This document shows, one piece after another, positions 24,888 through 26,547 of a stretch of 32,000 nt of DNA (position 1 is the stretch's first letter; every line of letters begins with the position of its first letter). Made by a program: the position numbers and the translations under genes. The notes under the pieces are model-generated. The model did not search any database. It worked only from the letters and a program-made list of their open reading frames with translations, and was not told the origin of the DNA. The stretch covers positions 1,170,001-1,202,000 of the forward strand of contig NC_015931.1 in assembly GCF_000223395.1 (NCBI RefSeq). The letters run 5' to 3'. The stretch is from Pyrolobus fumarii 1A. Its GTDB lineage: Archaea; Thermoproteota; Thermoprotei_A; Sulfolobales; Pyrodictiaceae.

Positions 24888-25547
24888 GTGCCGAGGGTGA
24901 AGAAGCGCCAGAGGAGCGAAGATGAGGGCAAGAAGGTGAAGTTCCTTGGACGCCATTTGATGCTCAAGGGCGAGTACGTCGACGATATACTGTCGGGGAG
25001 GAAGAAGGCTACGATACGACTGGGCATTGTTAAGCTGAAACACTCGGAGCTTATAGTCCATGGTGGAGGTAGGCCTGTTGCAAAGATACGCGTGACAAAC
25101 GTCCGTTACAAGAAGGTCTCGGAGCTGACCGATGAGGATGCAGCCATAGACGGGTTTAGTAGTAGAGAGGAGCTCCTAGAGGCGCTTAGGAAGGCTTATG
25201 GGGAGGTGAAGCCCGACGACTATGTCACCATAATAGAGTTTGAGGTTATCCAGAGGCTAGACCAGCTTCCAGTCCAAGACCCCTACATGGGTCTTGAGCC
25301 AGCCGATATAGCTAGGCTGGCTCTGCGTTACCTCCAAGAGGAGTTCAACGAGGAGGATCGCAGAATACTCATGGAGCTAACACGTACCAATAGCATACGG
25401 GCCGTAGCGTATAGGCTCTACAAGGATCTGGGCAAACGGTGGCGGGTGAGAAGAGTACTACGCCGTGCATTGAGACTCCTAGTGGAGCGCGGATACCTGA
25501 GGGTTAAGAGCGCCCCAACGTTGGGTGAGAACGCGGGAGGTGAGTAG
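24888..25547 (+). CDS. ASCH (PUA-like) domain protein with a basic helical (wHTH-like) C-terminal extension
   Basis: LMLKGEYVDDILSGRKKATIRLG and YVTIIEFEV parallel the ASCH pattern seen in E. coli YqfB (FQDDILAGRKTITIR ... YVIEF). The probable start is GTG 24888 or 24897; the track ORF from 24738 looks over-extended. Confidence 0.75.
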   Translation: MPRVKKRQRSEDEGKKVKFLGRHLMLKGEYVDDILSGRKKATIRLGIVKLKHSELIVHGGGRPVAKIRVTNVRYKKVSELTDEDAAIDGFSSREELLEALRKAYGEVKPDDYVTIIEFEVIQRLDQLPVQDPYMGLEPADIARLALRYLQEEFNEEDRRILMELTRTNSIRAVAYRLYKDLGKRWRVRRVLRRALRLLVERGYLRVKSAPTLGENAGGE

Positions 25548-25553
25548 GTAAAA

Positions 25554-25766
25554 GTGACTAAATGGGTATTGAGGTGTACGAGGTGCGGGAGGACCTGGAT
25601 ACTTGAAGTCAGCTTCGACCTTGCCTCTATGGGCAAGTTGTACCACTTCTGTCCACACTGTAGGCGTAACGCGTTCCACGAGGTACTTCAAAGGATAGAA
25701 GACGATATCGATATACCCATAGATGGTAAGCATCAGCAAGGAGAATACTCTTCATCCACCAGTTAA
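25554..25766 (+). CDS. Small zinc-ribbon protein
   Basis: 70 aa with CTRCG ... CPHC (two CxxC pairs 32 residues apart). The GTG start is 7 nt after the ASCH stop. Confidence 0.5.
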   Translation: MTKWVLRCTRCGRTWILEVSFDLASMGKLYHFCPHCRRNAFHEVLQRIEDDIDIPIDGKHQQGEYSSSTS

Positions 25767-25769
25767 AGG
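25762..25769 (+). promoter_or_regulatory. TATA-like box GTTAAAGG, ~34 nt upstream of the C box of the sRNA candidate at 25797
   Basis: It shares the TTAAAGG heptamer and its spacing with the element at 23649-23656. Confidence 0.35.
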
Positions 25770-25796
25770 CGTCCGTAGACCGTCGTTTCATCACCC

Positions 25797-25844
25797 GTGA
25801 TGAGACGGGGTACCTGAGAGGGTGATGAAACCTGTCTCAGCTGA
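25797..25844 (+). ncRNA. C/D box sRNA candidate
   Basis: The layout is: C GTGATGA (25797-25803), 10-nt spacer gacggggtac, D' CTGA (25814-25817), spacer gagg, C' GTGATGA (25822-25828), 12-nt guide aacctgtctcag, D CTGA (25841-25844). All four boxes match consensus and have canonical spacing. The 3' end overlaps the deoC stop on the other strand. Confidence 0.6.
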
Positions 25845-26547
25845 GGAGCTTCTTAGCCTCTTGTAGATCCCGGATTAGCTTTGAAGGATTGCTCGTGCCT
25901 ATCACGTCCGCTCCTAGAGCTACAAGTAGGGATGCGTAAAACCCGTCTTTTATGCCGCCAGACGCTTTAATCATCATGCCTCGCGGCTTGACTATCTTGG
26001 CTGCAAGAGCGACTTCCAGCGGCTCGACACCCCTAGAGAACCACCCTGTGTTCATCTTGACATAGTCTGGTCTATCCTCCTTATCCAGAGCCGCTATTGC
26101 CTCCAGTATCTCCTGGAGTGTTGATAAGTCTAGAAGCGAGGACTCGATTATCGCCTTGCTCTTCACTCCTACCTCTCTAGCTATCCTTGAGAGAGCGCGC
26201 ACCTCGTTTATAACATAGTCTCTGTTGCCTTTCATCCACTGCCACACATTAACCACGAACTCAACCTCACCAGCGCCATGCGCTATTGCCTGCTCAACAG
26301 CCTTTACCTTTGGCTCGATGTGACTCGCCCCGCTCGGGAAGTCTATCACAACGGATATCAATACTCTACGCGATACACCCTCAAGCCATGTCAACATGGT
26401 GTGGAACACTGTTACTGCTCTCAGGCCTAGTTTCTCCGCCTCTTCTACAGCCTCTACGACTCTATGTGGTGTTGGGTCGCGAAGAATAGCATAGTCTATC
26501 CTCTTTGCGAGTTCCTCGGGGGAGAGGAGACGATACTCAAACCTCAC
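25837..26547 (-). CDS. deoC: Deoxyribose-phosphate aldolase family (DeoC/class I aldolase), divergent
   Basis: DYVKMNTGW (Schiff-base Lys region, cf. VKTSTG), MIKASGGIKDG and GADVIGTSN. The position of the usual Asp in E(V/L)D(M/V)V reads EVEFV. The GTG start overlaps the top6A stop (GTGA). Confidence 0.7.
   Translation of the reverse strand: MRFEYRLLSPEELAKRIDYAILRDPTPHRVVEAVEEAEKLGLRAVTVFHTMLTWLEGVSRRVLISVVIDFPSGASHIEPKVKAVEQAIAHGAGEVEFVVNVWQWMKGNRDYVINEVRALSRIAREVGVKSKAIIESSLLDLSTLQEILEAIAALDKEDRPDYVKMNTGWFSRGVEPLEVALAAKIVKPRGMMIKASGGIKDGFYASLLVALGADVIGTSNPSKLIRDLQEAKKLLS

Follow-up and report, generated by a model that had tools for sequence, protein, structure and literature searches.

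What does the short plus-strand segment between a small Zn-ribbon protein gene and a convergent aldolase gene encode in Pyrolobus fumarii 1A, an archaeon that grows at up to about 113 °C? We addressed this question within a window of 32,000 nucleotides of the genome (NC_015931.1, positions 1,170,001 to 1,202,000), to whose first letter coordinates refer where no other reference is named. A first-pass annotation, made from the letters of the window, had proposed a box C/D sRNA here and had pointed out an inverted repeat that might act as an alternative fold or as a terminator. In our judgement, the region 25797-25844 (+) is very probably a real archaeal box C/D guide sRNA gene of the sR3/sR411 family (subsequently designated sRNA-A), which is predicted to guide methylation of the 23S rRNA nucleotide equivalent to E. 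coli position 2599. This reading is based on the boxes and their spacing, on complementarity to the organism's own rRNA, on conservation, on guide-target covariation and on the presence of fibrillarin and Nop5 genes.

Read from box to box on the plus strand, sRNA-A (25797-25844) carries four perfect boxes and could be aligned with 24 orthologues (alignment A1). The C box GTGATGA (25797-25803) is followed by the 10-nt D' guide GACGGGGTAC (25804-25813), the D' box CTGA (25814-25817), the C' box TGATGA (25823-25828, with a preceding G at 25822), the 12-nt D guide AACCTGTCTCAG (25829-25840) and the D box CTGA (25841-25844). Re-reading of the sequence showed that the first-pass annotation had given the box positions and the 12-nt D guide exactly. 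As is typical for C/D sRNAs, the RUGAUGA-type C box lies near the 5' end and the CUGA-type D box near the 3' end, both flanked by CC/GG, and the mature RNA probably extends from ~25794 to 25847 with a CC/GG terminal stem of only 2 bp. The internal D' and C' boxes are separated by a linker of only 4-5 nt, as is characteristic of a k-loop. Among the spacers, for which about 12 nt are expected, the D guide comprises exactly 12 nt and the D' guide 10 nt (11 nt in two same-genus relatives). Work on spacing in archaeal sRNPs indicates that a D' spacer of 10 nt, instead of the usual 12, may lower activity. When both strands of the 1,843,267-bp genome (G+C content 54.9%) were searched with a regular expression, only four loci with four perfect boxes at archaeal spacings were found, while by our rough estimate the number expected by chance is well under 0.001.

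In Rfam searches, the best match of sRNA-A was to the snoPyro_CD model (RF00095), which was matched over its full length with 27.4 bits (E = 7e-4) versus a gathering score of 45, and the sR3 model (RF01133) yielded 14.6 bits versus a gathering score of 41; these models rest on narrow Pyrococcus/Sulfolobus seeds and owe much of their score to the guide sequence. In the whole window, no match was detected at gathering thresholds, and only sub-threshold C/D matches appeared at E-value thresholds. Since the scores lie below the gathering thresholds, sRNA-A is kept out of the Rfam accessions and is filed under neither RF00095 nor RF01133.

The D guide was aligned with the organism's own 23S rRNA, which is encoded by a single gene (C1:81321-84448, minus strand) and reads ...UUUAGACCGUCGUGAGACAGGUCGGAC... 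around position 2800, with GUGAGACAGGUC at positions 2802-2813. Indeed, guide nucleotides N2-N11 form 10 contiguous Watson-Crick pairs with 23S 2803-2812 (UGAGACAGGU), while N1 and N12 are mismatched. The complementarity thus has the length expected of a guide (at least 8-10 bp) and includes the N+5 nucleotide. Runs of at least 10 bp covering N5 occur with P = 0.006-0.016 when shuffled or random guides are compared with 16S plus 23S rRNA. Nucleotide N5 of the guide (25836) is opposite G2806 of 23S rRNA, and by the N+5 rule G2806, i.e. E. coli G2599, is the predicted 2'-O-methylation site of sRNA-A. In E. coli, G2599 is located three nucleotides 5' of A2602; the latter corresponds to A2809 in this organism and likewise falls within the guide duplex. 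The E. coli numbering was anchored on the alignment in Additional file 3 of Dennis et al. 2015, according to which pan-archaeal position 2880 equals E. coli C2606, so that 2873 equals E. coli 2599 (E. coli row GUGAGACAGUUCGG; PMC4644070). The first-pass annotation had anticipated 10-11 bp starting at N2, the peptidyl-transferase-centre strand of 23S rRNA as target and the G of GAG directly 5' of ACAGG as modified nucleotide. Ten pairs starting at N2 were found and N5 falls opposite this very G, and the choice of target is upheld by the match in the organism's own 23S rRNA as well as by the conservation, covariation and published homologues described below. Pairing comprises 10 rather than 11 bp because 23S rRNA has a C, not a U, after GGU; the exact 11-mer TGAGACAGGTT, tried for an 11-bp pairing, matches sRNA-A alone in the genome. 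A literature search for direct mapping of Gm at the G2599 equivalent in Sulfolobus or its relatives returned nothing usable. We know of no eukaryotic methylation at the equivalent of G2599.

As in other members of the class, sRNA-A would form a k-turn with its C/D boxes and a k-loop with its C'/D' boxes, both of which would be bound by L7Ae, Nop5 and fibrillarin. The D guide would then pair with UGAGACAGGU in the peptidyl-transferase centre, on the 5' strand that runs into helix 93 and includes A2602, and fibrillarin would 2'-O-methylate G2806 (E. coli G2599), which faces guide position 5 as counted from the D box. Genes for two of the sRNP proteins are present in the genome (fibrillarin, 361.9 bits; Nop5, 267.3 bits). 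We infer sRNP assembly of sRNA-A as well as its expression, its RNA ends and the methylation, the latter three from homologues and class rules.

For the D' guide, no significant target was obtained. Its best match in rRNA comprises 8 bp at LSU 569-576 (P ~0.2), and the related D' guide of relative G010 (target GAACCCCTAT) gave no 10-mer match at the 23S locus of that genome near 1.66 Mb. Judged by these comparisons, the D' guide is treated as an orphan. With a D' guide of only 10 nt and no convincing target for it, sRNA-A is probably a single-guide sRNA.

Conservation of the element in relatives had also been raised in the first-pass annotation. Both the guide core and the boxes turned out to be kept class-wide. 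In BLAST comparisons of a 71-nt region with 30 relatives, the segment comprising C' box, D guide and D box was ~95% identical across the whole family and also in further families of the order. Of 301 genomes of the class, 199 contain the 15-mer pattern ACCTGTCTCANCYGA, which represents the guide plus D box, nearly all of them in a single copy; the reversed control pattern was present in one genome out of 301. At 43 of 44 fetched loci, the D-box end is preceded by a C box at a distance of 47-61 nt, and a C'-like box precedes the D box by exactly 12 nt. D' guide, linker, N1 and N12 vary freely among the orthologues (44 loci; alignment A1), and the D' guide differs from family to family. The core was fixed by the search pattern, and its invariance among the 44 loci is therefore not independent evidence, whereas the tally, the boxes and the variable flanks are.

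Further support comes from family f13, in which the guide ending in CTCA was present in 0 of 44 genomes, while 40 of 44 possess a form ending in CTCG (ACCTGTCTCG plus one nucleotide plus D box) that is absent from every other family. The rRNA differs at the same place: all four f13 genomes with a match carry CGCGAGACAGG in 23S rRNA, while CGUGAGACAGG was found in 4/4 genomes of other families. The A-U pair at N2 of the guide is accordingly replaced by a G-C pair in f13. This compensatory change represents one evolutionary event in a single family, and it is the signature that one would expect of a guide held by its rRNA target. Class-wide conservation together with this single compensatory change provides unusually clean in-silico support for selection on guide-target pairing.

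Comparison with published sRNAs places sRNA-A in a known group. Ignicoccus hospitalis sR411, which was detected with 1880 RNA-seq reads, has the D guide GACCTGTCTCAA and a predicted target at 23S G2873 in pan-archaeal numbering, and Sulfolobus acidocaldarius sR3 (2048 reads) has the guide TAACCTGTCTCGG followed by CTGA (PMC4644070, Additional file 1). Like sRNA-A, sR411 possesses the D-guide core ACCTGTCTCA and is predicted to target E. coli G2599 (Dennis et al. 2015, BMC Genomics 16:632). It differs from sRNA-A in its degenerate boxes (AUGAGGA, GUGAUCG, CCGA), which are perfect in sRNA-A, and in its D' guide, although both D' guides contain CACGGG/ACGGGG; moreover, sR411 has been seen by RNA-seq, whereas sRNA-A is predicted from the sequence. 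The sR3 RNA (RF01133) resembles sRNA-A in architecture and D guide (TAACCTGTCTCGG), but its D' guide is unrelated and its D guide has G at N2 where sRNA-A has A, matching the U-to-C difference in the 23S target. In addition, the same small Zn-ribbon gene is found upstream in the 12 fetched f13 loci carrying the sR3-type CTCG guide. With the sR3/sR411 group, sRNA-A shares the core ACCTGTCTC(A/G), which a single nucleotide separates from the D box, as well as the predicted target nucleotide, single-copy occurrence, a conserved position and guide-target covariation. By these shared features, sRNA-A is regarded as the orthologue of Sulfolobus sR3 and Ignicoccus sR411, i.e. as a member of a family known to be expressed.

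The locus contains a second C/D box sRNA on the minus strand (25733-25794, subsequently designated sRNA-B), which is recognized by its boxes, its pairing with 23S rRNA and its orthologues and is arranged head-to-head with sRNA-A, the two C boxes being 2 nt apart. In minus-strand direction, sRNA-B consists of the C box GTGATGA (25794-25788), the D' guide AACGACGGTCTA (25787-25776), the D' box CGGA (25775-25772), an unusually long linker of 17 nt (25771-25755), the C' box TGAAGA (25754-25749), the D guide GTATTCTCCTTG (25748-25737) and the D box CTGA (25736-25733). The D' guide forms 11 contiguous base pairs with 23S 2793-2803 (UAGACCGUCGU), immediately 5' of the sRNA-A target, which corresponds to P = 5e-5 to 0.004. 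Its N5 is opposite C2797, equivalent to E. coli position 2590 and to pan-archaeal C2864, and sRNA-B is thus predicted to guide 2'-O-methylation of C2797 (E. coli 2590). Orthologues of sRNA-B with canonical boxes were found no more than 210 nt away from sRNA-A at 18 of 44 loci, always on the opposite strand (alignment A2). At most of these 18 loci they are upstream and head-to-head as here, and in three genomes they are located downstream in a tail-to-tail arrangement. Relatives also retain the D guide of sRNA-B (core UUCUCCUU); searches of rRNA, of the 39 tRNAs predicted by ARAGORN and of genome-wide 9- to 11-mers revealed no identifiable target for it, and a joint scan with ten orthologous D guides returned only G-U-rich, ambiguous sites, such as LSU 2844.

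The partner has published counterparts as well. The D' guide of Pyrobaculum calidifontis sR30 and the Ignicoccus sR27/sR124 RNAs have pan-archaeal C2864 as predicted target (PMC4644070), and therefore share the target nucleotide (E. coli 2590) with the D' guide of sRNA-B. In Ignicoccus, sR124 and sR27 carry the same guide as sRNA-B. In sR30, the 2590 guide is accompanied by a D guide directed at C2880 (E. coli C2606), while no target could be identified for the D guide of sRNA-B. The head-to-head arrangement recurs in Ignicoccus, where sR411 is paired with sR124, whose D' guide begins with AACGACGGT: the two RNAs start 2 nt apart, sR411 at 962502 (negative strand) and sR124 at 962500 (positive strand; PMC4644070). 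The family, the target and even the head-to-head arrangement are thus already contained in published supplementary tables for Ignicoccus and Sulfolobus, and their presence here will be unsurprising to a specialist. Outside the archaea, the snR73/SNORD35 RNAs direct formation of a Cm in 25S/28S rRNA at a position that, from our own offset calculation, we take to be the equivalent of E. coli 2590, the sRNA-B target. Unlike archaeal sRNA-B, snR73/SNORD35 are nucleolar RNAs of eukaryotes with degenerate C'/D' boxes.

Identification of sRNA-B bears directly on the inverted repeat. The perfect 12-bp repeat reported in the first-pass annotation is present: gtttcatcaccc (25785-25796) and gggtgatgaaac (25820-25831) are reverse complements of each other without a mismatch. 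Its existence has invited the explanation that the repeat itself is the functional element at this locus, either by terminating transcription of the convergent Zn-ribbon and deoC genes in both directions or by acting as a switch that sequesters the C' box, with the C/D boxes being secondary. In line with this idea, the minimum-energy fold of the minus strand uses the repeat, and the region folds somewhat better than shuffled sequences (z = -2.1 to -2.7). However, the 5' arm (25785-25796) is the complement of the sRNA-B C box and its first three guide nucleotides (25785-25794), extended by the 2-nt spacer between the two C boxes; its minus-strand sequence is GGGTGATGAAAC. The repeat can be broken down into the 7-nt box consensus present on both strands, the AAC with which both guides start, and two G residues. 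Complementarity hence arises because two C-type boxes lie on opposite strands. Moreover, the hairpin is not conserved, as only 6-7 box nucleotides remain complementary in relatives, and no such hairpin can exist in the three genomes in which sRNA-B is downstream of sRNA-A. In the minimum-energy fold of the plus strand, the partner of the arm is the C box of sRNA-A and not the C' box, and the 12-bp stem appears solely in that of the minus strand. Terminators in archaea consist of oligo-T tracts; behind the Zn-ribbon and deoC genes, only TTT occurs and T runs of four or more are absent. As the arm is accounted for by sRNA-B, and given the lack of conservation, the folds and the missing T run, a terminator or riboswitch-like role, which the first-pass annotation had entertained, is rejected as primary explanation and appears very improbable to us. 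We regard the repeat as a by-product of the tight packing of sRNA-A and sRNA-B and not as a functional element.

A guide RNA at this place could alternatively act on the neighbouring mRNA. The convergent gene (25837-26547, minus strand) encodes a DeoC/LacD-family aldolase by a marginal Pfam match (DeoC, 27.4 bits versus a cut-off of 23.8, residues 63-135), and its identity as a deoxyribose-phosphate aldolase gene is uncertain. Exactly as noted in the first-pass annotation, the D guide of sRNA-A contains the stop codon of this gene (25837-25839), so that 8 nt of sRNA-A overlap the ORF. In Pyrobaculum, where 97 of 526 C/D sRNAs overlap coding genes, 3'-antisense overlaps are frequent, and an action on mRNAs has been suggested for them (Lui et al. 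2018, NAR 46:5678; PMC6009581); the sRNA-A/deoC overlap belongs to this class. By analogy, sRNA-A might act in cis-antisense on the deoC mRNA, besides or instead of rRNA, by methylating the G after the stop codon or by affecting stability. The D guide is complementary to the deoC stop codon and the first nucleotides of the 3'-UTR at 12 of 12 positions, which is so by construction. But the overlap occurs in this genome only: synteny of the convergent deoC-like gene is confined to the family, and homology to deoC ends 5-147 nt beyond the sRNA in relatives. The guide, in contrast, is conserved across the class and covaries with rRNA, and therefore selection acts on the rRNA target. Accordingly, a cis-antisense role of sRNA-A is considered quite improbable, and the overlap, which is not under visible selection here, is viewed as a by-product of tight packing. 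In keeping with this, the overlapping guide of sRNA-A retains its rRNA target, while many of the overlapping guides in Pyrobaculum are orphans, although the published percentages refer to sense overlaps. There is also the trivial explanation that box-like motifs have assembled by chance in a 3' intergenic region devoid of an RNA gene. The scores below the Rfam gathering thresholds would agree with it, but the occurrence of only four perfect four-box loci in the whole genome led us to dismiss it. A single-copy element with preserved box architecture in about two thirds of the class, the covariation between guide and target and the RNA-seq detection of homologues in two other genera likewise oppose a chance origin, which we find barely credible.

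Accepting sRNA-A as a guide RNA gene and sRNA-B as its partner, two unannotated guide RNA genes would be added to the P. fumarii 1A genome, for which 52 RNA genes were reported and sRNAs were not mentioned (PMC3156397). Together they would direct two predicted ribose methylations at a distance of 9 nt on the A2602-bearing strand of the peptidyl-transferase centre. It is conceivable that both constitute a conserved linked 'PTC methylation module' for E. coli positions 2590 and 2599, the linkage being selected and not merely inherited synteny. We consider this rather unlikely, while granting it a modest chance of being right. Each precursor necessarily contains the antisense of the other; if the idea were true, sense-antisense pairing of the precursors, or the palindrome at the C-box junction, could coordinate their processing or stoichiometry.

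Directly upstream of sRNA-A lies the gene for the small Zn-ribbon protein (25554-25766, plus strand), identified from the ORF list and Pfam, whose last 34 nt (25733-25766) are antisense to sRNA-B. The succession of Zn-ribbon gene and sRNA-A is kept in families f1 and f5 and at 12 of 12 f13 loci, and the order ASCH-domain gene, Zn-ribbon gene, sRNA-A is kept in the organism's own family and in f5. This order suggests co-transcription or, alternatively, a promoter for the sRNA where the Zn-ribbon gene ends. The Zn-ribbon protein yields a weak, sub-threshold Pfam match to a NOB1-like Zn ribbon (window 24954-25766, plus strand; loci L005-L017 and L048-L059), and its old linkage to the sRNA may point to an RNA-related role. 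Approximately the last 19 codons of the Zn-ribbon gene (25709-25766, plus strand) run past the stop of some orthologues (after ...FHEILGKLED in L012 and L017); this C-terminal tail may be a by-product of the location of sRNA-B. A heptamer TTAAAGG (25763-25769, plus strand), which is at -34 relative to the C box of sRNA-A, lies inside the linker of sRNA-B and contains the stop codon of the Zn-ribbon gene, is a possible TATA-like box for sRNA-A. An A/T-rich box near -30 is present in about half of 14 relaxed C/D candidates of the genome; no A/T-rich box was found at the same place in the same-genus relative L005.

A few observations concern the genome at large. In many archaea, the fibrillarin and Nop5 genes are adjacent; here, they are located ~950 kb apart (C1:739128-739802 and C1:1691299-1691976). 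A relaxed regular expression returned thirteen further C/D sRNA candidates, of which five are on the plus strand of C1 (48529, 359991, 772927, 794305 and 1303733) and eight on the minus strand (1693837, 1596062, 1425608, 943908, 914431, 858124, 857301 and 766566). Two of the latter, 857301 and 858124, are less than 900 nt apart.
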